A stretch of DNA of 64,000 bases, taken from contig NW_024704742.1 in NCBI RefSeq assembly GCF_018977255.1, positions 74,278,001 through 74,342,000 on the forward strand, read 5' to 3'. Both the position numbers and the translations under genes were made by a program. Numbering within the stretch: position 1 is the stretch's first letter; each line of letters begins with the position of its first letter. Shown piece by piece: positions 9,640 through 51,337 of this stretch. This DNA is from Callorhinchus milii. Lineage: Eukaryota. The notes below the pieces were generated by a model. That model was given only the letters and a program-made list of their open reading frames with translations. It was not told the origin of the DNA and did not search any database.

Positions 9640-10090
9640 GGTTACACACTACAACTCACCAAGCCAGTTAGGAACCTAGGTGTCTTGTTCGACCCGTAAC
9701 TGTCTTTTCTTCCCCACATCAAAGCCATGACCCGCTCTGCCTTCCCTCACCTCTGTAACATCGCCCGACTCCGCCATTACCTCACTCCTCAGGACGCTGA
9801 AACTCTTGTTCGTGCCTTCATTGCCTCCAGGTTCGAGTATGCAAATGTCCTGCTTGTCGGCCTTCCCAACTTCTCCCTCCACAGGCTGCAGATAATCCAG
9901 AACTCTGCAGCCCATGTCCTCTCCCGCACCAAACTCCGTGATCCCATCTCCCCCATTCTCGCCCGACTCCATTGGCTCCCTATCCTTCAGAGGATCCAGT
10001 TCAAGATCCTGGTCCTCACCTACAAAGCCTTCCATGGCCTCGCCCCACCCTACCTCTGTGACCTCCTAACCCCCTATCAATCCACCCGTG
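9640..10090 (+). mobile_element. L2-clade LINE ORF2 fragment
   Basis: NIARLRHYLT...AFIASRFEYANVLLVGLP...QNSAAHVL...LHWLPILQRIQFKILVLTYKA. Confidence 0.9.
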
Positions 10091-10209
10091 TGTTTCCTAT
10101 TTTAATTCCTATTTGTAGTGTCTTATATTTATCTTTATTAAACTTCATTCAGTTACCAGATGCACAAATCTCTAAAAATATCTACATAGGAAGGTAGGAT
10201 TATTTTTAA

Positions 10210-31349: not shown

Positions 31350-32879
31350 TCAGGCAGACTAAAACCTATTGAGGAGGACAATGCAAACCCATTTCCATGA
31401 TTTAAACAAGTGTTTGGTGTGTAAAATATTGTAATCTAAATTCAGAGACATGGTGTTGAATAGTTAAGTTTAATGAAAGAGTCCAACTGTAATCCGATAC
31501 ATTTGTAAACTGACATCTCTAGATATTGACTTTCCAAGCAGTGAGGTTACAACTGCATTGAAGAGCTCAATCTCTCTTTGCCCACAAAATACACAGTCAA
31601 TTCACTTTACGGTATATTCTGTAGAGCGCTTTGAGATGTCTCAACAACCTGATAAGGCGCTATATCAAATGCAAGCATTATTATTATTTAGCAAAGCTGC
31701 AATATCACTTCCTATTTGTCCTTTGACCTGTGACCCGTGTAACTGTGGTAGGAGTTGGAGTGCGATAAGATGATCTGCTGTAGATACTAACTTGTACCAA
31801 CAATGGTACAAGAGTCTGTGTGAAAGCTGTCCTGGAGCTTTCAGTTTCTTAAATGTTGGTTGTAAAGTCTCCAAGTTTCACTTCAGAGTAAAATCCATAC
31901 AGGCTTCTGCGCAGAATGAAACAGTGTATGAATGAGGAGTGGATCTTTCCATTTCACATACAAGCCAGACTTTGTGTTCCATTCAATGAACCACTACAGG
32001 CAGCTGGTGTCATATTGTTTGTTTCATTCCTTTCAATGGAAAATGTATTTTCCAACACAGTGAAATCACTTGGGAGAGCCCTTATTGGCAGTATAATGTC
32101 AATTGTGTTACTCTGACAAAGAAGACTCCTCCAATAACGCTGATATAAATAAACTACCCTGGCTGTGATTCAAGCTTTATTGGAATGGATAGAAGATAGA
32201 CTCTGAAGTATTCCCTTACATAAGTCACAGATTTGGAACTAAAAGGACAAGTGTAGATGGCACAGATTAAGAAAGCTTTGCTCATGTACATTTTGTTTGA
32301 AGTTTTTGCCAACCTCCCTTTCAGTGCCAGGATAACGGGGATGAAAGATACCTTTGTGTTGTGTTGACGTGTGCGACATTGATTTGTTTGCCACTTCTCA
32401 ATGGAAAAATTGAAGCCGGTTACACATCTCTTTCTATTCAGCGTTTTACACTGCAGAGGGCTGGCTAGCAACCTCTGGATCCCACCCAAGCCGTATGGCT
32501 ACTCATGGGACTGTGGTGATACAAATGACTGGTGAGTTTGTCAACAAAACAGTCACTACTGTAATTACCTATTGAGAGCTTAGTGATATTTTAACTTGCT
32601 AAGACGCTAGAAAATTGCAAGTTCTTTCTTAAGGTTGCATTTTCATGACAACTGTAACTATCTAGGGATAGGATTCTCCTTGGTTAATACAAGTATAGAG
32701 AGAAGGAAATTCACATTCTTTTTCTCCGTTGCAAATTATTCTGCACAATAAAGGTGAGAGGAGAGCTATCAAGCACTCATGGACACAACTCTGTGTGAAG
32801 GGCGCTATATAAATGCAAGTTGCTGTTATCAATGTTTTGAACGAAACACATTTCTGCATCGGGTGCCTGGAAGATTAAT

Positions 32880-33625
32880 CGTGCAACTTCCTGCAGCTGA
32901 ACGTGGACAAGATGGAAGCCATATTCATTGGCTCCCGTCAACGTGTTCACTCCTGCGAATCTGAACTCCTCAACCTCCCTGGGCTCTCCCTCAGACTCAC
33001 TGAACCAGTGCGCAATCTAGGCATCTGGTTCAACCCCCAACTTCCACCTCCACCACATTGCCTGCCTCCGATCGTACCTTACCCCAAATGCAGCCGAAAC
33101 TCTCGTGCATGTGTTTGTCACCTCCCGTCTGGATTACTCAAATGCTTTCCTCAACGGTCTCCCCAGCTCCACTATTCAAAAGATCCAGCTCAATCAGAAC
33201 TCTGCCGCCCACATACTGACCCGGACCAAACTCTGTACCCACATCTTACCAGTTCTGGCCGAGCTCCACTGGCTCCCCCTCACCAAACGAATCGACTTCC
33301 AAGATCCTCACACTTGTGTTCAAATCCCTTCACTCCCTGGCACCTCGCTACCTCTCCGACCTCCTCACACCCCAATCCACCACCGGGCGCCTCTGCTCAA
33401 CTGGCACAGGCCTCCTGCTTGTCCCTCGAGCCCTCCACCCCACCATCGGAGGTCGCTCCTCCAGCCACTACGCCCCGAAACTCTGGAATGCTCTCCCTCA
33501 ATCCCTTCGCCTTGCCCCCCTCCCTCACCCATTATCACCAGCTGAATGTCCAGTACTGTCCATGTAAAATGCTTTGAGACATGACCCTATGTGAAAGGCA
33601 TTGTTGTACAAATGCAAGTCGTTGT
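32880..33625 (+). mobile_element. L2 LINE 3' fragment
   Basis: HVFVTSRLDYSNAFLNGLP...LHWLPL...; IGGRSSSHYAPKLWNALP; frameshifted. Confidence 0.9.
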
Positions 33626-35601: not shown

Positions 35602-35655
35602 ATGAGAACCATCATTCTAATTGTGTGCCTGATAGGCACAGCTCTCGCCAGCCCA
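35602..35655 (+). CDS. SPARCL1: SPARC-like 1, first coding exon (signal peptide; exon starts at 35586)
   Basis: tgcag acceptor, 16 nt of 5' UTR, ATG; MRTIILIVCLIGTALA-SP = 16-aa signal peptide plus 2 aa; gtgagt donor, phase 0. Confidence 0.9.
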
Positions 35656-36131
35656 GTGAGTGTCACTTTCTCCAGATAAAAATATAATCTTTACTCAACT
35701 CTAATATTCTGAACTATTTGTGAAATGAATATTCATCAAATGAATATTCTGAGTGATAGGGTCGAAAATGTGGTTTTACTAAAAAAAAAGTACTCCAAGT
35801 GAGACTCCTTCCAGTGATAGGAAATACATCACATTAACCCACAGCAACTACACTCTGAAGGTAGTCTGAGTTGGAAGGTATTGGATTTCTCACAAATTAG
35901 TGTGATTACCATAAAGAGTCCCAAATTGTGATTTAAGAAATTCCTGTGAACTGTTTTAATATAATAATAATAATCCTAGCATTTGATATAGCACTCTATC
36001 ATATCGTTGAGACATCTCAAAGTGCAGCACAGAAATATATCATATATTCAAAGATAATTATTGTAATAACTTCATACATTAAAATCAACTTCCTTGCTGT
36101 CATGTTTTACAATCACTGTTTTCATTTTCAG

Positions 36132-36170
36132 ATCCGCAAAACTCGAGATGTGAGCAGTGAGAGTATAGAG
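36132..36170 (+). CDS. SPARCL1: SPARC-like 1, 39-nt mini-exon (IRKTRDVSSESIE)
   Basis: ttttcattttcag acceptor, gag|gtaatt donor, phase 0/0, ends in S-x-E motifs. Confidence 0.8.
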
Positions 36171-36617
36171 GTAATTCTGTGACTCTGTTATGATGGTTTA
36201 TACAAATGTGGTTTTGTTCAATTAATTTACATTCAACCCAAAAAGCTTGCAGAATGACTCTTTTTTCAGTGTTTAGAGTATGTGTCCACAGTTGATTTCT
36301 CCATCAACATAAGCACCGTTGCTGCATAATGACAGATGTTGTGAAACTCACAGATCAGGAGGAGAGGGATGAGGGATCTGGGCAAGAAACAGGACAACTA
36401 GAAGAGTTACAGCCAGTGTTTCTGTGCTTTCAGAAGCTGCTGGGTCTGGAACCAGGAGAAGGGAATGCGTTCCTGGGGAGAGAGTATAATAATTTGATAT
36501 AGTGCCTTATCACGTCTTAGAGATGTCTCAAAGCCCTTCACAGAATATCTGAAGTGAATTGACCGTATATTTTGTGGGTGAAACACGGCAGCCAATTTCG
36601 CACAGAATTGAACATTT

Positions 36618-37121
36618 ACCCGGGGAGTGGGAGCAAGAACCTGGGGGGAGAGGGAGCAAGAACCTGGGGGGAGAGGGAACAGGTACCTGGAGGGAGAGAG
36701 GGAGTGGGTACTCGAGGGGCAGAGAGGGAGCGGGTACCAGGGGTGGGGGGTGGAGAGGGAGCGGGTACCCAGGGTGGGGGGAGTGGGTACCCGGCGGGGA
36801 GAGGGAGCGTACCTGGGGGGGAGAGAGAGGGAACGGATACCTGGGGGGAGAGGGAGCGGGTACCCGGGGGGGGGGAGAGAGAGGGAGCGGGTACCTGGGG
36901 AGAGAGGGAGCGAGTACTGGTTGGGGAGAGAGAGGGTGTGGGTACCCGGTGAGGGAGGAGAGGGTGGGTATCCGGTGGGAGGAGAGAGGGAACGGGTACC
37001 TGGGGGGTGGGGGAGAGGGAGTGAGTACCTGGAGGGGGAGAGAGTGTGGATACCCGGGGAGGGAGAGGGTGTGGGTACCCTGGGGGTGGGGGAGAGAGTG
37101 TGGGTACCCGGGGGGAGAGAG
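36618..37121. repeat. G-rich minisatellite (~22-28 nt units, core gggtacctgggggagagggag)
   Basis: About 20 imperfect tandem units with strong purine/G strand bias; source of several spurious overlapping ORFs. Confidence 0.9.
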
Positions 37122-37563
37122 AGTAGTCTGATACACAGAGAGAGAGGAGAACCTGCCTGGGAAGCAGATGTTTACACTTTTGAATACTGACATGTCACAG
37201 TCCAAAATCATAGTTTATTGTAGACAGAAGTGAAAGTTAAAGTATGTAACCACCCTTACACAAATAGGGATAAACCGGTTTTCATTATTTTTTCAGGGAG
37301 GAAATTCAGACAGTGATGAGGTAAGGAATTATTCAGTGTATTTGCGTGTGTTAAATTGCATGCAGATTGAATAATGAATACTGATAGTTCGACCGTCCCT
37401 CCCCTCGCCTCGGCTTCATGCTCCGCCACTGTCAAGCTCTCTGAGGCGCTAGCCTGCATGAGGGGCGTGATATAAACGCAAGTTGTTGTTGTTAATAATG
37501 CTGGTTCTTCATCTTGCTGCAGACAGTGAGGCACTTTGTAATGTTCTGTCTGTGTATTTACAG

Positions 37564-38322
37564 ATGAACCCCTTGGTTGATCAGCAGTACTTTCTCTATC
37601 CACGTAGATCCCATTCTCAAATCCCTTCACGGCCTAGATATTACCCAGAGGTTTTCCCTGCTGTACCTCCTGAATATTCCCCTTACCACAGCAAATCTTA
37701 TCAGCCTTTTCATTCCCAATACTTTGCAAGGTATCCTGATTACGCTCAACAGCCTTTCTATTCTGATTACAATGAACACCCAGGGTCTATGGTGTATGAC
37801 AGTTATCCGTACAAGTACCATCTCTTCCCTTTGATAAAGAGGATTCATAATCTGGTAGCATATCGTCTGGGGCACCATTCTACAGGCAACAGATTTGGGG
37901 CCATCCGTGAGAGTGCTCCACAGGTCACACCAAGCAGTATGGAAAACACTAGAACTGAGAAACCCATGGAGAATATCACTCCTAGAATACCAAGCCTGGA
38001 TGGTATCTTCATGTATAACAAACCAAATGAGGTCCCGCATGTTTCTGAGCACAATACTGAGCTTGCCCACTTCACTGGGAACTACCTTGAGCAATCGACA
38101 GATGAAATAACTGATGAAGAAGATCCATATGATGTTCTACGAAACTCTGACTCCATAGGGGTGGAACATTTTCGGTCATCCGGAATTGACATTAGTTATG
38201 AGCAAGTTGGCCACGATATTACCTCTTCAGAATCAGCAGATGAAACCTTGAATAATCAGGAATTGGAAAGTCAAGGAGTGTCTCAGGTAGATTACGTGGA
38301 TGATGACAATGAAACGAATAAG
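37564..38322 (+). CDS. SPARCL1: SPARC-like 1, Tyr/Pro/Gln-rich then acidic exon (253 aa)
   Basis: tttacag acceptor, open phase-0 frame of 759 nt, aag|gtattt donor (alternative cag|gtagat after 38286); lies between other exons of the gene in compatible phase. Inclusion in the mRNA is inferred. Confidence 0.75.
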
Positions 38323-38367
38323 GTATTTTTACTCCTTCAATATACAACGAGTCAAATAAATCCCAAG

Positions 38368-39197
38368 CTACAACAACAACAACAAAATTACATTTGTAAA
38401 GCTCTTTCACGTCGGGAGGACGTCCCAAGGCGCTGGATAGACAGAGTTACGGATCTGAGCTGGGAGTCGGGGGCAGGGTGGGGAAGCAGGGAGATCAAAA
38501 GCATAGTTGAAGAGGAGGATCTTGAGATGGGTCTTGAAGGGAGGGGGCGAGGCGGAGGGACTGAGGGATGGAGTTCCAGAGGGTAGGGGAAGATTGGCGG
38601 AAGACCCGCCCGCCAATAGTGGGGTAAGCGAGATGGGGGACGTGAAGGTGAATTAAGCAGGCTGAAGCCGCTGAGCGGAGGGAGCGAGTAGGATGGTAGG
38701 GTGTTAGGATGTCACAGAGGTAGGGGGAAGCAAGACTGTGGAGGGCTTTGAAGGTGAGGACCAGGATCTTGAACTGTATCCTCCGTGTGATGGGAAGCCA
38801 GTGGAGTTGGGCAAGGATGGGGGTAATAGGGTCACAGAGCCTAGTGTGGAAATTCACAGGCTGCAGAGTTCTGGATGATCTGCACCCTATGGAGGGAGGA
38901 GTTGGGGAGGCCGACAAGCAACGAGTTTGCGTAGCCGAACCTCGATGTAATGAAAGCATGTTTGAGGGTTTTGGTGGCCTGCGGTGTGAGACAGTGGCGG
39001 AGCCGGGCAATGTTGTGGAGGGGGGGAAGGCAGAGTGGGTCATGGCGCAGATGTGGGGTAGAAAGGATAGTTGAGGGTCAAACAAGACCCCAAGGTTCCG
39101 GACTGACTTAGTAAGGTGAAGTGTGCAACCATGGATGGTGATGCTGTCAGTGCTTGAGTGAGGGGGCGCTGACGGGAGCCAATCGGGAGAGCCAAAG
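38368..39197 (-). mobile_element. L2 LINE 3' fragment with (TTG)n tail
   Basis: VRNLGVLFDPQLSF...LHWLPITRRIQFKILVLTFKALH...IGGRVFRQSSPTLWNSIP. Confidence 0.9.
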
Positions 39198-39462
39198 TAA
39201 TAATAACATGCCAATTAGCCATAGAGTAATGCACCACAGTATATGTTAAAATAATTAGCAAATATTGATGGTGCCGGGGAAGGGAGGGTTTGGCTTAATG
39301 AAGGAGATGTGCCTGGCAAAGTGAGGCAAGACCTCAGTAAAGTGAACAGAAGTTGATCAATGACCAGTCTGTCTGGCTCATCAATGAGAGGGAAGTTTGA
39401 AATCCCTGATGATTTTGAAAGTGATTGGAAACCATGTGCGGTTACCATTGTTGTTTGTATCC

Positions 39463-39731
39463 AATTCCAGGCACAGGGCGAAACCTTGGGCAAGTTTCCT
39501 TACTCCACACGCCTAATAATAATCCCTCCAAAACTAAAAACAATAATTAAATTGGTCATTTTCAATCTACGACTGTTTGTGGGACATTGCTGTGCGCAAT
39601 TGGCTGCCGCGTTCGCCCACAAATATACAGTCAATTCACTTTACAGTGTGTTCTGTGAAGCGCTTTGGGACGTCCTCCCGACATGAAAAGCGCTATATCA
39701 AATGCAAGGATTATTATTATTATTATTATTA
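39463..39731 (+). mobile_element. tRNA-derived SINE (5'-truncated)
   Basis: Near-identical to the copy at 7680-7949. Confidence 0.85.
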
Positions 39732-39997
39732 ATTGGAAGGTTGTGTTTTCACACCTTTGGCTCTGGCTCACTGGGCTCAGGTGTAACAGTGCACCAGGTG
39801 TCAGTTTCCCACTCACTATTTCTGCTTCAGGCATTGTGTGTGAGAACTGGTTGAATTAAATTGTGGACTAGAGCTAAATGATGCTGTGGTTTTCAGCACC
39901 AGCAAAGAGCATCATGATTCTGGATGTATTCTGTGCTAATCTCACAAACTGTATATGGTTTCAGCATTGTGATGGGATGGTTTCTCTCTGTCTGTAG

Positions 39998-41230
39998 GCA
40001 CAGGACATCAGGACTGAGTCAGTACAAATGACTGACAGCGACAGCAGAGGTGATTCCAGTGAGAGCAACACTTCTGAATCCACTGGGGATGGAGATGAAA
40101 ACAGAGTGGAACAGAAAACTGATCTCAGAGTGGAGTCCACTGAGGATAACACAGCCGAGGACACTGAAGACAGTGAGGATGAAGATAGCAAAGCTGACCT
40201 GAGAAACAATGTCATTGATGACGACAAAACTGATTCCAATGAAGACTATGATAATGACGATGGCAAAGCTCACTTGGGATCGGAGTCCACTGAGGATAAC
40301 TCTGATGAATCCACTGAGGATGATGATAATAGCAAAGCTGACTTGATGGTTGATTCCAATGAGGATAACTCAGCTGAGTCCAATGAGGACAGTGATGAAG
40401 ATAGCGAAGCTGACCTGAGAATGCAATCCATTGAGGACAGCACAGCTGAGTCTACCAAGGACAGTGATGAAGATAGCGAAGCTGACCTGAGAGGGCAATC
40501 CATTGAGGATAGCATAGCTGAGTCCAATGATGACAGTGATGAAGATAGCGAAGCTGACCTGAAAGTGCAGTCCATTGAGGACCTCACAGCTGAGTCCAAT
40601 GATGACAGTGATGAAGATAGTGAAGCTAAACTGAGAGTGCAATCCACTGAGGACAGCACAGCTGAGTCCACTGAAGACAGTAATGAAGATAGCGAAGCTG
40701 ACCTGAGAGTGCAGTCCATTGAGGACCTCACAGCTGAATCCAATGATGGCAGTGATGAAGATAGCGAAGCAGACCTGAGAGTGCAATCCCCTGAGGACCT
40801 CACAGCTGAGTCCAATGATGACAGTAATGAAGATATCGAAGCTGATCTGAGAGTGCATTCCCCTGAGGACCTCACAGCTGAGTCAATGATGACAGTGATG
40901 AAGATAGCAAAGCTAACCTGAGAGTGCAGTCCATTGAGGACCTCACAGCTGAGTCCAATGATGGCAGTGATGAAGATAGCGAAGCTGATCTGAGAGTGCA
41001 ATCCCCTGAGGACCTCACAGCTGAGTTCAATGATGACAGTGATGAAGATAGCGAAGCTGACCAGAGAGCGAGGTTGATTGAAGACAACACATCTGAGTCC
41101 AGTGATGACAGTAATAACAACAGTGCTAAACAACCTGAACTGAATGCTGATTCCAGTGCTTTGAAGTATGATGAGTCTAATGAAGGTGACAGCAATGAGT
41201 CAAATTCTGCACCAAGAAGCCTACAGGAAA
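39998..41230 (+). CDS. SPARCL1: SPARC-like 1, large acidic Asp/Glu/Ser exon with RGD and 72-nt tandem repeat; 1-nt frameshift near 40884 in this sequence
   Basis: tctgtag acceptor (phase 0), a|gtaagt donor (phase 1, matching the next exon); ORFs 40028-40921 and 40924-41349 carry the same repeat in two frames. Confidence 0.85.
40112..41120 (+). repeat. Coding tandem repeat, 72 nt / 24 aa, ~14 units (SEADLRVQSIEDLTAESNDDSDED)
   Basis: agcgaagctgacctg recurs at 40403, 40475, 40547 etc. Confidence 0.92.
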
Positions 41231-41392
41231 GTAAGTGTCACATCAAGTGGGCTTTTCCATTAATAACACATAAAGCGAGTGTGTTAAATTTGCTGACTTA
41301 TCTGGTCCTTTTCTCTTCAAGTCAGAATCACTGCTGGGAATGCCACTAATTTATTTTTACAAATTGTAATTGTAATTTTATTTAATTCATAG

Positions 41393-41514
41393 ACCCATGT
41401 AATAACCATCCTTGCAAACGTGGAAAGGTCTGTGAGCTGGACAATGAAGGGAAGCCCATGTGTGTTTGCCAGGACACAAGCACCTGTCCTGCTAGTACCA
41501 CTGACTCTCAGCAC
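41393..41514 (+). CDS. SPARCL1: SPARC-like 1, follistatin-N (EGF-like) exon
   Basis: [41 protein letters not shown]; ag/gt boundaries, 122 nt. Confidence 0.95.
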
Positions 41515-42667
41515 GTGAGTGTTTGTTATCACAATAGCAAAGTCTAGTGAAACAAAAGAATTAAACAAACATTCACTGCTTTATTTCAGATCATGGTTTC
41601 ATCACTGGCACAATTTTCGACTCTGTTACCAACATAATATGCTGGGTGCCAGGGTAAATACTAATTCAAAACACACATCATCTTAACAAAAATATGAATA
41701 TTAATCATGAAAAGCCAATAAACTACATGCAGAGAGTTCTGTGTGTTCTCTTCCAGACTGCTCTGGTGCCAAACAATACCATCTTTTAAGGAAACCACTC
41801 ATTGCAACCCATTCACCTCTTTCCTGAAGGGGACCAGGAAACGTCCCATGGTGTGACGGTTGTTTCTCTGAGCACCAGTCGGTACCATGACTGTTTACTG
41901 ATGTTCTCGGTGACTTTGGGGTCCTCAAACTTTAGGATTCTCCCAAAATCCCTTGGTAGTTGAGCCAATCTTATGAACTAATCTTATGCTGTGATTCATG
42001 AACTGAATCAATACCAACTGGTTTGGACTACTGCTTGTAAGCAGAATTTGGAAAAGGAAAGTTAATAAAATAAATATGATTTCATGGGTTTATCTGATAA
42101 AATACAAAGAACCGATTCTTTTATATTCTTATTCGGGATCTTGTTAGCGCTGAATTGGTTCCAAGGTGACATGCCTGGCAACAGATTGTTGGAATCAAGC
42201 CAGCCCTCTGTGGTGTCCCAGTAGACCAGGTCCTAAGTCAGGCACTTTCGCAGTATTCCAGGGCACTGCTGATGACAGCACAGCCCAGCCTGGCTCATCT
42301 ACAGGACCCGGAGAGGCAGACCAGTCACTGGAGGCAGAGAGTCATCCCACTCAGCTCCTGTTAATCCTGCAAGCCAAAGCCCTAACAGGTCAGGTGTTCC
42401 TCACTGGACAAGGAGTGGGAAAGCTTGCCGAACACCAATATCAATGGCAAGCTATGTGGTTTTAGCTGGTTAGACTCCAGCAATACCCCAACGCATGCTC
42501 TGGGGTCCCCAAGCCAACCCGCAAGAAATATTCAATCAAGAAAATGTATTTTGTTTTGCCAACCATACAGGTTGGCCACCACTGTTCTAGGGATTATGTT
42601 AGTTTGTCCATAGTTGCTAAACTTCAACATTTTTCCTTGTATTATTAAACAATTTGTTTTTTTCCAG

Positions 42668-42788
42668 GTGTGTGGCACAAATAACCGAACCTATGAAAGC
42701 TCTTGCCAATTCTTTGCCTCCAAGTGCATTCTTGAAGGAACAAAGAAGGGACACGGACTCCACCTGGACTACTTTGGGCCCTGCAAAG
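42668..42788 (+). CDS. SPARCL1: SPARC-like 1, Kazal exon
   Basis: [40 protein letters not shown]; 121 nt, ag/gt. Confidence 0.97.
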
Positions 42789-43189
42789 GTAAGTTTGTAA
42801 TGCAAGAAGTGTCTAAGGTCCAAATTATTAAGCACATGGAGTTTGTAACGATTCCATAACTATCCAGGTTTCAATATTTTCATTTATCATAGATTTAAAT
42901 TAAGATAAGACTGTTACAATAATCTACTATGCAAATAATGTACATAATACAACAGGAGTGGATGTATCTTATTGGTACCTGTAGGGACTTTGACTAATCT
43001 GTGCTTTGATATGTCATTCTAAGAACAAATTGCTTCGCCAATACAGTACCATAGTATTAGCAGCAATACGATTTTCTCACCTGAAATATATTGCATTGAA
43101 TATGGTGCAAGGAAAACAATTAGCTACTTCTTTAAACAGACAGTCTAATTTGCAATGATACAAAATATGCTTCATGTATTAGCTTGGTT

Positions 43190-43540
43190 AGTTTGGTTCA
43201 GTTGGTAGCTCTCTTGAAACTCTGTGGGTTCAGCCCTCAGCAGGATCTAGGTTGAGATAATATTGATGAAGTGCTGCATTGTAAAAGGCACTATCCTTTT
43301 GGTGAGATATTAAACAAAGGTCCTGTATGTGTTGAGGTGGACATTAAAGAGCAGGGAGTTCTTTGAGTATCCTGTCCCAATATTCCTCCCTCATCCAACA
43401 TTCACAAAACTATGAATTGATTATTTTTTGTCATTGTCATTTCAATTATGTTATGGGTACAGATTAGCTGCCAGGTTTGCCTATATTTCAACCGTCAAAA
43501 TAGCTCACTGCATAAAATGTTATGTCAAATGCAAGAATTA
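43190..43540 (+). mobile_element. Deu-domain SINE, decayed
   Basis: ggttcagttggtagctctc head; gagatattaaacaaaggtcctgt..aggtggacattaaaga core. Confidence 0.55.
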
Positions 43541-43652
43541 AAAAAAATCTGATTTTTGAAGAATTCGGTGGCCTTATTAATTAAATTACATCTATACAAA
43601 ATTTACATTGAAAAAATGAGGCTTTAACATGGTTTATTTTGGTTCTTTCTAG

Positions 43653-43789
43653 ACACAGCTCCATGCCAGGATAATGAATTGCTTCAGTTCCCTTTGCGGT
43701 TACGTAATTGGCTGAAGAATGTCCTAATGCAAATGTACGAGCGCGATCTTCAGATCCCTGGAATCCTTACTGAAAAACAGAGAAACAGA
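43653..43789 (+). CDS. SPARCL1: SPARC-like 1, EC domain exon (alpha-A helix)
   Basis: [46 protein letters not shown]; 137 nt, ag/gt. Confidence 0.95.
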
Positions 43790-44594
43790 GTGAGTTGTGT
43801 TGGTTTTGTTCTTCTTTAGTACTTGACTAAATACCAATTGGGAGTTTCATTTTAAACTCAGTTAGATCATCAATCATTCAGGTTGGTCAGATCGTCAGAT
43901 GAAAGAAAAACTTATCATTAACCCTGCTTTAAAAATGTACCTCAAAAATCCCAGTTTTAGGGTATTATCTCCAATTATGCACCACGGTGATCTCTTCTAT
44001 TAAGATCTTTGTCTTTTGGGAATAAGATTAAAGCTACCTAAATTTACCAAGACATTAGACTTTCTGAGAGAGAAAATTCTCATCTCAACTGTTTGAACCA
44101 AGTTTCAGATCTCTTCAATGCATTAATGTTCTCATATCACACTATAACCAGTGTTTCTTGTCCCTATTTATTGATTTCCTTATTACTTCACTCATTCACA
44201 TCTGCATCCTTCCTCAGAAGATGAGATCACACAGGTTGGAAGGCAGGGGTCTCTGAAATCAATGCTCTTCCAGAATTCAACAAGCAATAACCATGAAACA
44301 GTGAAACAAGACTGTCAATTCACCCCACTTGGATCATTGCAAAAGTGAGGAGTAATAGCCACTGGAAGATATTGAGGAAGTGCCTTAAATACATTGATTG
44401 CACATCATAGGCTACATGAGGATTGATTTGAAGGATCCATAAAAGGATTTACAAATTGTGAATCCTGCAGGTGACCCAGATTAGAACTTGCCCCGACCCG
44501 GTTCGGGACAAATATTAACTCAGTGTTTTCAGCAATAGAAGGCGAACATTGTGTCTGAGCTACTACTAACTTTAAAAAAAATCAATATTCCATA

Positions 44595-44725
44595 ATCTTA
44601 AATGTTTTTAATGCATTTATCCAGTAACCCTTTGAATGATTTTATTGATCCAGCCTCAGTGGACACTTGTAATAATGAATTCAACACACTGACAACCCTC
44701 TGAATGAAGAAACTTTGCCCATCTT
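44595..44725 (-). mobile_element. Short CR1 3' fragment just upstream of an exon acceptor
   Basis: Minus strand FFIQRVVSVLNSL...EAGSIKSFKGLLDK. Confidence 0.7.
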
Positions 44726-44768
44726 TTTCTGTTAACAGTACAATTATGGCACAATCCTTTGTTTGTAG

Positions 44769-44914
44769 GTTAAGAAAATTTATGACAGTGAGAAGAATCT
44801 TCATGCTGGTGACCACTTATTGGATCTGCCTTACAGTGATTTCAAGAATTATTATTCATTCATCTATCCAGTTCACTGGCAATTCAGACAGCTGGACCAG
44901 CATCCAACTGATGG
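44769..44914 (+). CDS. SPARCL1: SPARC-like 1, EC domain exon (into EF-hand 1)
   Basis: [49 protein letters not shown]; 146 nt, ag/gt. Confidence 0.95.
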
Positions 44915-45755
44915 GTAAGAAGGAACAAGCTTTATATTGACTTTCTTTTTCTGCTATTCCATTTTTAATTGGAAAACATAGGAAATTAAACTCAAGAGTA
45001 GGTCATTTGGTTCATCAAACCAGTTCTGCTATAAACCATTCTATGTACAACAAACAATCCATGACTTTCTGGGACAGTGATAGATTCTTATTCCTTTATA
45101 GGAAGAGATTTTCTTGGTCATAATCAGTTTTTTTTTTAATCCCAATTTTAAACCCATGTCTGCTTTAACTGATGGACTCACCAGGGGAAAAGTCAATTTG
45201 AGATTGGGTGGAGTTGCATCTGGGCAGGGTGGTAAAGGCGAGCATGCTAGACACATTTACGAAATGGCTTGAGCTTGATGGTCTAATGAGAAGATGGTAG
45301 GTTGGGGATTCATCAAAGACGAGTCTAATTAAACTGAAGGGCCATGTCTCACTTGTATATTACAAACTGAATTCAGTCCAATTACAATTTGGATGGCTAT
45401 TTTCCTTTGGTCAGTGTTGTTCATTAGTATTATGACTGCAACAATTTGCATTTCTATAGACCTCTGCACGTGGGGTAATGTTTTGGAGTACTTCATGATG
45501 TCTGACAACATCAGATGAGTAGTGAAGTCTCATCGTGATTGATAAATCCATCTATTTTACAACGCACTTATATATACAATATGCACACAAGATAGCATCT
45601 CAAAGCATTTTACAAGGCTAGTGTTGGTCTCTGAGCGGGGGTGGGGGATTTGAAAAAAANGTGCATATTTTTCAATGTGTACCAGGCACATGAATGACCA
45701 AAAATATTTGTTGTACTGTGCCATAGAACTCACAATGCTTTCATTCTCATTCCAG

Positions 45756-45904
45756 TTATCTCAGCCATTCTGAGCTGGCTCCCCTTCGTGCTCCATTAGT
45801 TCCTATAGAGCACTGCACCTCCCGATTTTTCACGCAGTGCAACACTGATGGTGACAGATTCCTCTCTTTGAGAGAATGGGCTCACTGCTTTGACATCAGT
45901 GAAG
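45756..45904 (+). CDS. SPARCL1: SPARC-like 1, EF-hand exon
   Basis: YLSHSELAPLRAPLVPIEHCTSRFFTQCNTDGDRFLSLREWAHCFDISE; 149 nt, ag/gt. Confidence 0.96.
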
Positions 45905-46324
45905 GTGAGAAGAGTCATACAGTGAGATTATTTCATCCTCATGAACTGTTAACATTTAATATTTTTATTCATGTTCAAAACTTGCACTTCATATAGAGTA
46001 CATTTATTTCAGTAATTGAAATCTTTGATAATCCATTTAATTCATTGTGTTTTGTAGTATTGTTCGGAATCTAGATTGACCTCCCTCTTTTTACAATTAC
46101 AGCAAAAAGATTAATAAAGGACGGGGTGTGGTCTCATTCACAATTGAATTGGACAACGCCAATGTTGTATAAATATATTACTTTAATCTTCCCAGTGGAA
46201 ATGAGGGATGTGATGCTGTCAGTAGGTGGAATATTAGTGTTGCAGACAGAGTTGAAGAGATAAGGCAAAAAGCTATAATGGACAAAGTAATGCGACTGAA
46301 ACTGCCAAGTCACCAGTCCTTGGG

Positions 46325-47130
46325 GATTAAGAGATTGTCATAGTCAAGCCTGGAGGTGATGAAAGCATGGTTAAGGATCTCAGTGGCCGGAAGGGAGAGG
46401 AGGAGCTGGGCAATTATGCGAAGGTGGGGGAAAGATGAATGGGTCAGGGCACGGATATGTGGTTTTCAAAGCAGTTGAGAATTGACCGAAGTTCCCCACT
46501 AGCTCTGTGAGGTGCAGTGTGCATCCATGTAGATTGATGCTGTCGGAGCCTGAAGTGAGCAGGCGCTAACGGGAGCCAATCAGGAGAGCCTCGGTCTTGT
46601 CAACATTCAACTGGAGAAAGTTAGCTCTCAACTAGAACTTGATGTCTGACGGACAAACGGTAAGAACAGCAGTGGTCTTGGAGTCGAGTAGCAGGCAGAG
46701 ATAGAGTTGGGTGTCATCTACTTCCATGTTAACCTCATGCCTGCGGATGACATTGCCAAGTGGGAGGGTGCAGATATTAAAGAGAGGACCGAGTATAGAG
46801 TCCTAAGAATACAAGTGGTGGTGCAAGGGCAGGAGGAGAAGCTGTTGGCAGATACGAAGTGGAGACTTTGGGATTAGGTAAGAATGAAATCAGCAAAAGA
46901 CAGAAACATGAAGATGGAGCTGAGAGGAGAATCGGTGGAGAAGGATAGAATGGTTAACAGTGTCGAAGGCAGCAGAGAGATCAAGAAGAATGAGAGAGAG
47001 ATCCCTGGTCACAGGAAGGAGGGATGTCATTAGTGACTTTGATCAGTTTCGATACTGTGGCAGCATAGAAGCCAGATTGGACGAGTTTGCTCATAGGTTA
47101 GAGATAGGAATTTGTTAGGCAACAGGGATG
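46325..47130 (-). mobile_element. L2 LINE RT fragment, decayed
   Basis: Minus strand LILLDLSAAFDTVNHSILLHRF..., LGPLLF, LQLNVDKTEALLIG remnants. Confidence 0.8.
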
Positions 47131-47252
47131 GGTCGAGAGACTACCCACTAATTTCAAGTCGCATAGCAAATTAAACAGTAGTTTTAAAAAAAACATTTTA
47201 CTAAATTGATAAGTATTTGTATTGAAGAAATTCCTGTTCCTTTCTCTTACAG

Positions 47253-47281
47253 AAGACATTAATCCTGATCTTACCTTCTGA
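47253..47281 (+). CDS. SPARCL1: SPARC-like 1, last coding exon (EDINPDLTF*)
   Basis: tttctcttacag acceptor, phase 1; SPARCL1-type C-terminus; TGA followed by TGA TAA; AATAAA at 47529, 47731 and 47818. Confidence 0.92.
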
Positions 47282-50220: not shown

Positions 50221-50689
50221 CAAACAACAAAAAACATTTCAATGAAATAATGTAGCATGAGCATCTCATAAAAGACACAGAGTTATGCAGGAGCAAGATG
50301 TTAGGAATGAGGTGAGGTAAATGTAAACAGGATGAATAAATATTACAGACAGCATCATAGAATTTGCAGCATCTGTTCACCAAAACACAGCCACCTAACA
50401 GAGGACAAAACAGGATTATCAGCAAAAATAGAATAGTCATAAAAACATTGAAGAAACTGGCAACCCATCTAAACCAAAAGTTTTTACTATTTTGTGAAAT
50501 TTACCAAACAGTGAAGTAACTGTTCAGTTTTTATTTGCTTATGGCTTCTGGGTGTAGAGAACACATATTTGCTTAAAAAGCCGAGGTCAAATCAAAATGT
50601 GTGCAAATGAAATACTTTTTTGCTTGGATACAGACTACAGAAATACATATTCTTTTGAACTGTCAACAGTGTCTAGGCCTTCAAACATC

Positions 50690-51337
50690 CATTCTTCCTC
50701 ATCCACGGTCTCACACCACAGGCCGCCAAAACTGTCATACATGCACACACTGAGGCTTGACTATGCAAGCTCCTTGCTTGTCAGCCTCTCCAACTCCTGC
50801 CTCCACAGGCTGCAGATCATCCAGAACTCTGCAGCCCATGTCCTCTCCCACACCAGGGTCCGTGACCCTATCACCCCCATCCTTGCCCAACTCCACTGGC
50901 TTCCCATCACACAGAGGATACAGTTGAAGATCCTGGTTCTCACCTTCAAAGCCCTCCATGGTCTTGCTCCCCCCTACCTCTCTGACCGCCTAACCTCCTA
51001 ACATCCTGCCCACTCCCTCCGCTCAGCGAGCTCCGGCCTGCTTCACGTCCCCCACCTCACCCGCCCCACCATTGGCGAGCCGGCCTTCTGCCACTCTGCC
51101 CCCACCCTCTGGAACTCCACACCGCAGTCCCTCTACCCCCTCTCTTGCCTCCTTCAAGATCCATCTAAAGACCCTCCTCTTTGACCATGCTTTTGATCTC
51201 TGATTCCCCGCCCTGCCCTCCACCCTACCCAAACCTGACCCCCAGCTCGGGTCCGAAACTCTGTCTGTCCAGCGCCTTGGGAAGTCCTCCCGACATGAAA
51301 GGCGCTATAGAAATGTAATTTTGTTTTTGTTGTTGTT
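50690..51337 (+). mobile_element. L2 LINE 3' end with (TTG)n tail
   Basis: RLDYASSLLVSL...LQIIQNSAAHVL...LHWLPITQRIQLKILVLTFKALHGLAPPYL. Confidence 0.9.

Follow-up and report, generated by a model that had tools for sequence, protein, structure and literature searches.

A tyrosine- and proline-rich head on a large N-terminal exon of Sparc-L in elephant shark, probably ancestral in cartilaginous fishes

Sparc-L of the elephant shark (Callorhinchus milii) carries, at the start of a large N-terminal exon, a tyrosine- and proline-rich head of 94 residues, an overlooked feature of a gene (sparc-L, SPARCL1) that is already known and whose sequence is in print. The segment encoding it, within the 64,000 nucleotides that we analyzed (the window), almost certainly begins this exon and is spliced in. 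We consider it likely that such a head is ancestral in chondrichthyan Sparc-L and, a little less firmly, we favor an overall explanation in which this ancestral head was inherited by Scpp, has a disordered self-association role, and generated as a by-product the pentapeptide RPRYY, which invites comparison with bone sialoprotein (BSP, or IBSP).

The gene occupies 11 coding exons on the forward strand of the window, from 35602 to 47281, with AG..GT ends on the first ten (Table 1); no adjacent gene was recognized in the window. When joined, these exons reproduce SPARC-like protein 1 isoform X1 (XP_007890095.1, identical to UniRef A0A4W3J2H3) for 936 of its 937 residues, and the protein is identical to Sparc-L-Cm in file S1 of Leurs et al. 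2022 (PMC9122587) across the first 400 residues displayed there. It has a signal peptide and a long acidic domain I, and the FOLN, Kazal and SPARC_Ca_bdg matches in its C-terminal part all exceed the curated Pfam cut-offs. Its nearest relatives are SPARCL1 proteins in a search that spanned lengths of 493–1572 residues and thus excluded short SPARC proteins, such that the assignment is decided by identity with the published Sparc-L-Cm. The order proposed in the first-pass annotation, i.e., signal peptide, basic and SxE residues, Tyr-rich segment and then acidic sequence, holds in the joined exons. The 5' layout is of the SCPP type, with phase-0 exons, a first exon encoding the signal peptide plus two residues, and then a short exon ending in SxE; but because all of the Kazal and calcium-binding exons, whose loss characterizes SCPPs, are present, Sparc-L is SCPP-like at its N-terminus without being an SCPP.

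Table 1. Features of sparc-L in the window, with positions counted from its first nucleotide.
Feature	Position	Strand	Support
Coding exon 1 (18 aa): signal peptide and 2 further residues	35602..35655	+	Joined exons match RefSeq-derived protein
Coding exon 2 (13 aa): basic RKTR, SxE sites at 3' end	36132..36170	+	
Coding exon 3 (8 aa): second short SxE exon	37297..37320	+	Spanned by the same RNA-like contigs as exon 4 (runs X1, X3)
Head of coding exon 4, Tyr/Pro-rich and net neutral; protein residues 40-133 (of 937)	37564..37845	+	
RPRYY pentapeptide; not conserved in 14 elasmobranch relatives	37630..37644	+	
Remainder of coding exon 4, moderately acidic; homologous to conserved internal region of shark Sparc-L/Scpp	37846..38322	+	
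Coding exon 5: very acidic, with 31 SxE and tandem repeats of 72 bp (24 aa)	39998..41230	+	
Follistatin-like EGF exon	41393-41514	+	Pfam FOLN
Kazal exon	42668-42788	+	Pfam Kazal
SPARC calcium-binding exons	43653-43789, 44769-44914, 45756-45904, 47253-47281 (stop)	+	Pfam SPARC_Ca_bdg, E 9.5e-31

Coding exon 4 (37564-38322; 759 nt, AG..GT, phase 0 at both ends) is transcribed, as the first-pass annotation presupposed: RNA-like contigs from all three runs that yielded them (two studies) include it. Over the region 37160-40115, runs X1, X2 and X3 yield contigs that begin at 37562, two of them bearing 56–58 extra letters in front, and one contig per run jumps from 38320 to 39996, skipping the next intron; the two-base offsets at these joints correspond to an AG that fits on either side. 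Because the RNA-like contigs start at its acceptor and jump the following intron, we take exon 4 to be spliced in, with the proviso that the RNA status of the runs, none of which is recorded as RNA, is a guess made by the tool, and that our reading of them as RNA rests on the intron-skipping contigs. A further run, X6, reads 37160-38394 in one piece, as DNA would.

A model joining coding exon 3 directly to exon 5 does exist. In the accessible parts of the PMC9122587 supplement, XP_007890097.1 (file S14) comprises residues 1-39 plus 254-898, i.e., it lacks exon 4, and the codon alignment (S11) fuses the 8-aa exon directly to the acidic exon. Together with the fact that omission of exon 4 preserves the reading frame, this could be taken to mean that the exon is minor or mispredicted, usually skipped and without a role. 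Such a reading is almost certainly incorrect, given that exon 4 is present in the contigs of every RNA-like run, forms an open frame of 759 nt, and is homologous to shark sequence. An exon-skipping joint was not found among the contig joints listed, contigs being prone to lose rare forms. Since the exon is skippable in frame, alternative splicing could yield proteins with and without the Scpp-like module.

The interval 37564-37845 is open throughout, and translation confirmed the composition attributed to its first 89 residues (16 Tyr, 15 Pro and 7 Gln), the presence and position of RPRYY, and the ending YPYKYHLFP followed by LIKR. Tyrosine is strongly enriched, at 16 of 89 residues vs. 17 among the remaining 809 of the 898-aa protein (Fisher p = 7e-9), i.e., 18% as against 2%, and the head is 17% Pro and 8% Gln with a net charge of 0. 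Because the elevation of Gln (7.9%) is no more than slight, ‘Tyr/Pro-rich’ describes the segment better than the original ‘Tyr/Pro/Gln-rich’. The 22 aromatic residues are mostly spaced one to five apart within a Pro-rich, hydrophilic and neutral stretch that looks disordered, and acidity climbs only past about residue 150 of the exon.

Several other features of the locus merit mention. Relative to the published protein, the window is one base short at 40883-40886, within the 72-bp repeat exon, shifting the frame at residue 588, and this is probably an assembly error. An RGD(S) at 40046-40054 (residue 309 of Sparc-L) lies in an Asp/Ser-rich setting resembling that of SIBLING proteins; RGDS also occurs in Heptranchias Sparc-L (residue 336) and in none of the other five shark Sparc-L, RGD is found in 4 of 114 bony-vertebrate SPARCL1 N-termini, and its presence here may be a chance occurrence. 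An R/K-x-x-R directly follows the signal peptide (36135-36146 in C. milii) in all nine proteins checked, the eight from elasmobranchs among them, and an Arg ends the head (37837-37842) in each of the five aligned Sparc-L, with a dibasic site in three; these are possible cleavage or heparin-binding sites that could release the Tyr-rich peptide. The 24-nt SxE exon (coding exon 3) is not evident in the Sparc-L proteins of sharks and may have arisen by duplication of coding exon 2, and the intron between the two contains a G/A-rich imperfect tandem array (36622-37152) with a period of about 23–26. Elsewhere in the window are degenerate fragments of LINE-like reverse transcriptase, together with numerous copies of a repeated element that we presume to be SINE-like (9700-10197, 32879-33577, 50558-51200 and 38388-39214), and these repeats attract very high read depth.

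Exon 4 is related to the large exon of shark Sparc-L. Aligned end to end with those of five sharks, it gives local scores of 170, 150, 154, 107 and 99, and in each of the five comparisons none of 500 shuffles (within 15-residue windows) reaches the observed score. By comparison, the best score against 114 bony-vertebrate SPARCL1 N-termini, mostly from teleosts (the best 120 of 427 matches minus six chondrichthyan sequences), is 67, with a mean z of 0.12. The homology signal resides in residues 95–253 of the exon, for which none of the 980–986 scored shuffles reaches the score of an HMM built from the five sharks, and where the SME site, an EEDP/EEP..L..SD block and DETLNN.E are conserved. For a mixed Sparc-L/Scpp HMM under default correction, one in 1000 shuffles scored higher. 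Against individual Scpp, exon 4 aligns with at most 1 of 500 shuffles scoring as high in three of eight cases, and the three skate Scpp are not significant.

The head by itself aligns no better than its composition would predict: 100–187 of 1000 shuffles reach its HMM score, and pairwise z values are 1.5–2.7. Because of this, its homology rests on position and make-up. With respect to make-up, the maximum number of Tyr per 60 residues is 14 in C. milii, 12, 15, 15, 11, 8 and 11 in six shark Sparc-L, and 12–19 in eight elasmobranch Scpp, vs. no more than three in all 114 bony-vertebrate SPARCL1 from the best 120 of 427 matches (94 of them with a signal-like start). Aromatic residues account for 22–25% and Pro for 12–16% of all seven chondrichthyan Sparc-L heads, and Asn for 17–22% of the shark heads vs. 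2% of that of C. milii. Counts made by eye from the accessible supplement of PMC9122587 give three to four Tyr in the heads of two skate Sparc-L and about six in that of Chiloscyllium. Because sharks are related to one another and do not constitute independent points, the informative contrast is between chimaera plus sharks, on the one hand, and skates plus bony vertebrates, on the other.

Broader searches returned little beyond the protein itself. A word search with the 94-aa head (three candidates) and a phmmer search of 1.84 billion representatives with the 253-aa exon each found only Sparc-L itself; these blanks are mute on novelty because even the orthologues from sharks are masked by low complexity and rapid divergence. 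A PDB sequence search with the head gave no matches, and the sequence searches recovered no other holocephalan, such that a single holocephalan species enters the comparison. The three SPARC-L2 models in the accessible supplement of PMC9122587 all appear to be N-terminally incomplete.

These observations differ from the published account. Leurs et al. (PMC9122587) score Sparc-L as lacking the Y-rich domain in their Table 1, treat this domain in their discussion as a convergent gain of elasmobranch Scpp, describe the conserved internal region as absent from elephant shark, and report only D/E and S bias from their bias finder for C. milii. Both the Y-rich domain and the internal region are present in the C. 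milii Sparc-L analyzed here, and the Tyr-rich exon is contained in the C. milii sequences of files S1 and S2 of the same paper, where the S2 alignment sets the head and SME site, though not the later block, beside those of sharks. Among the papers listed by our searches, we found none that places a Y-rich head in Sparc-L of chondrichthyans and derives that of Scpp from it; the exon may be discussed by Kawasaki et al. 2017 (J Exp Zool B); the accessible text of PMC6117938, PMC7814152, PMC3964593, PMC8656109 and PMC13188829 makes no mention of such a head, and the supplements of these papers may bear on it.

Under the explanation that we favor, Sparc-L would already have borne the head in the last ancestor that chimaeras share with sharks, and the composition of the head would have been kept while its sequence turned over. 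Elasmobranch Scpp would then have inherited the head with the duplicated exon and subsequently enriched it, and the head of skate Sparc-L would have been reduced. Alternatively, in an extension of the convergence view of Leurs et al., compositional drift at one and the same exon start might have produced Tyr-rich heads independently in Scpp and in the Sparc-L of chimaera and of sharks. We regard this as unlikely: it requires at least two or three gains at one place, vs. a single reduction in skates, and it must contend with the fact that the Arg at the end of the head and the SME site following it are common to all five aligned Sparc-L. In the accessible text of PMC9122587, moreover, the reported conversion tracts span the first two coding exons as well as the last part of exon 3, which leaves the head outside, and C. 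milii has no reported scpp that could act as a source of conversion. A tblastn search with six N-termini across the 64-kb window detected no second copy of the 5' exons among the matches listed.

A link to IBSP was suggested by the first-pass annotation, in which the order of segments mirrored that of IBSP, the Tyr-rich segment could bind collagen or drive assembly, and the five-residue match could be chance. The pentapeptide does occur in the collagen-binding peptide of BSP (per a table in the accessible part of PMC11635874), and rat BSP residues 19–46 bind collagen (as described in the available text of PMC12815950, which also gives the IBSP layout). As in IBSP, a short SxE exon immediately precedes the Tyr-rich part and acidic tracts follow it; Heptranchias retains PRY at the aligned site; and just 1.05% of 200,000 random 28-mers with the composition of the BSP peptide have any exact 5-mer in common with the head. 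This rate is low, but it applies to a head/BSP pair chosen after the fact. Likewise, RPRYY arises in only 0.15% of 200,000 shuffles of the 94-aa head, which is the wrong null because the motif was chosen after the fact. Once several Tyr-rich proteins are compared, the match falls within composition expectation: in 25% of 20,000 draws, shuffling the head produced some 5-mer that is also present in one or more of 13 Tyr-rich heads (the real head shares none), and RPYY, RRPYY and RPPYY occur at unrelated sites in Scpp. These controls were composition nulls, used in place of a profile of IBSP orthologues set against shuffles.

Neither sequence context nor conservation lends support to kinship or to a collagen-binding site. 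With RPRYY set in register, 1 of 23 other positions of the BSP peptide, as given in the accessible source, is identical (by eye), and a second resemblance to BSP pointed out earlier lies about 55 residues beyond the motif; the same peptide has six Lys/Arg and no acidic residue, vs. a net-neutral head in C. milii. RPRYY is absent from all 14 elasmobranch relatives (six shark Sparc-L and eight Scpp) and from the 114 bony-vertebrate SPARCL1 drawn from the best 120 of 427 matches, and among the supplement sequences listed in PMC9122587, where alignments are gapped, it was seen once, in C. milii. A profile search whose length range would include IBSP returned no IBSP among its 12 matches (4817 candidates). 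Pfam, which includes a BSP model, recognized no family in the head or in exon 4 and no BSP family in the 898-aa protein, in a test where HMMER filters discard most matches above E 0.1. The 898-aa protein lacks polyglutamate of the IBSP type, with no run of four or more Glu, and the only RGD of Sparc-L (residue 309 of 937) is surrounded by Asp/Ser and is not the C-terminal RGD with Tyr-rich flanks of IBSP. We rejected membership in IBSP for a full SPARC-family protein with follistatin, Kazal and calcium-binding domains. It is thus very unlikely that the head is an IBSP-like collagen-binding segment in which RPRYY is a functional or inherited motif shared with bone sialoprotein; the match is probably a chance product of composition, and the pentapeptide would be a by-product of the make-up of the head.

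We tentatively assign the head a role in self-association, a reading to which we give slightly less than even weight. In secreted Sparc-L, it would act as a disordered aromatic ‘sticker’ that binds Sparc-L molecules to each other or to other matrix proteins, and this association would cluster the acidic, Fam20C-phosphorylatable stretch behind it for the binding of calcium phosphate. According to the accessible portions of the respective papers, assembly of AMEL and AMBN is driven by aromatic N-terminal segments (PMC7786100), and sparc-L is expressed in catshark ameloblasts (PMC9122587), a comparable observation for C. milii not being found. The Y/F-x-x-Y/L/F-x-Y/F motif of AMBN/AMEL assembly matches once in the head, with 1.22 matches expected from composition, and zero to one times in the six shark Sparc-L heads. 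The nearest ESM Atlas cluster to the head is kappa-casein (score 0.76), which we treat as a lead only. Collagen binding, if any, might more simply be assigned to the C-terminal SPARC domains, described in the available text of PMC6117938 as collagen-interacting and calcium-binding.

A more far-reaching reading, which we consider quite unlikely, is that Sparc-L of the jawed-vertebrate ancestor already bore an aromatic/Pro-rich head, that the Tyr-rich N-terminal modules of bony-fish SCPPs (IBSP, AMEL, AMBN, SCPP5 and caseins) derive from it, and that bony-fish SPARCL1 later lost it. The part that would make RPRYY a literal relic is the least likely of all, to the point of being barely credible. 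If this reading were true, chimaera Sparc-L would be a single gene prefiguring the acidic as well as the P/Q-rich SCPPs, and an optional in-frame exon would toggle an enamel-protein-like module.

Under the narrower explanation that we prefer, a published claim is corrected, in that Sparc-L of the chimaera and of sharks has a Tyr-rich head on a homologous exon, and one claimed convergence, the gain by Scpp in sharks and in bony fish, becomes probable inheritance. Chimaeras, with no reported scpp gene, gain a candidate matrix-assembly module. The head peptide is also a candidate for amelogenin-like self-association, which bears on whether enamel and enameloid have a common origin.

Among known systems, a close likeness is to Sparc-L of sharks (Heptranchias, Heterodontus, Cetorhinus, Scyliorhinus and Mustelus), with orthologous C-terminal domains (62–69% identity for four sharks), a homologous large exon and a Tyr/Pro-rich head; these proteins differ in their Asn-rich heads, in lacking RPRYY and the 24-aa acidic repeat, and in that the separate 8-aa exon is not seen in their sequences. 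Elasmobranch Scpp share the signal peptide, the R/K-x-x-R, the SxE exon and a large exon that passes from a Tyr/Pro-rich head into the shared internal region, but they are without follistatin, Kazal and EC domains, their aromatic content is higher (28–36% vs. 23% in C. milii), and they carry long PDY repeats where the C. milii exon has one PDY and one PEY. The P/Q-rich SCPPs (AMEL, AMBN, SCPP5 and kappa-casein) likewise have an aromatic-rich N-terminal module (as described in the accessible text of PMC7814152), whereas the C. milii head, with only 8% Gln and the assembly motif at chance level, lacks a Pro/Gln core with PXY runs. With IBSP, C. milii Sparc-L has in common the SCPP-type 5' exons, a Tyr-rich N-terminal part, acidic tracts, RPRYY and an RGD somewhere in the chain; it differs from IBSP in having SPARC domains and neither polyglutamate nor a C-terminal RGD, and in that the similarity around RPRYY stops at five residues.
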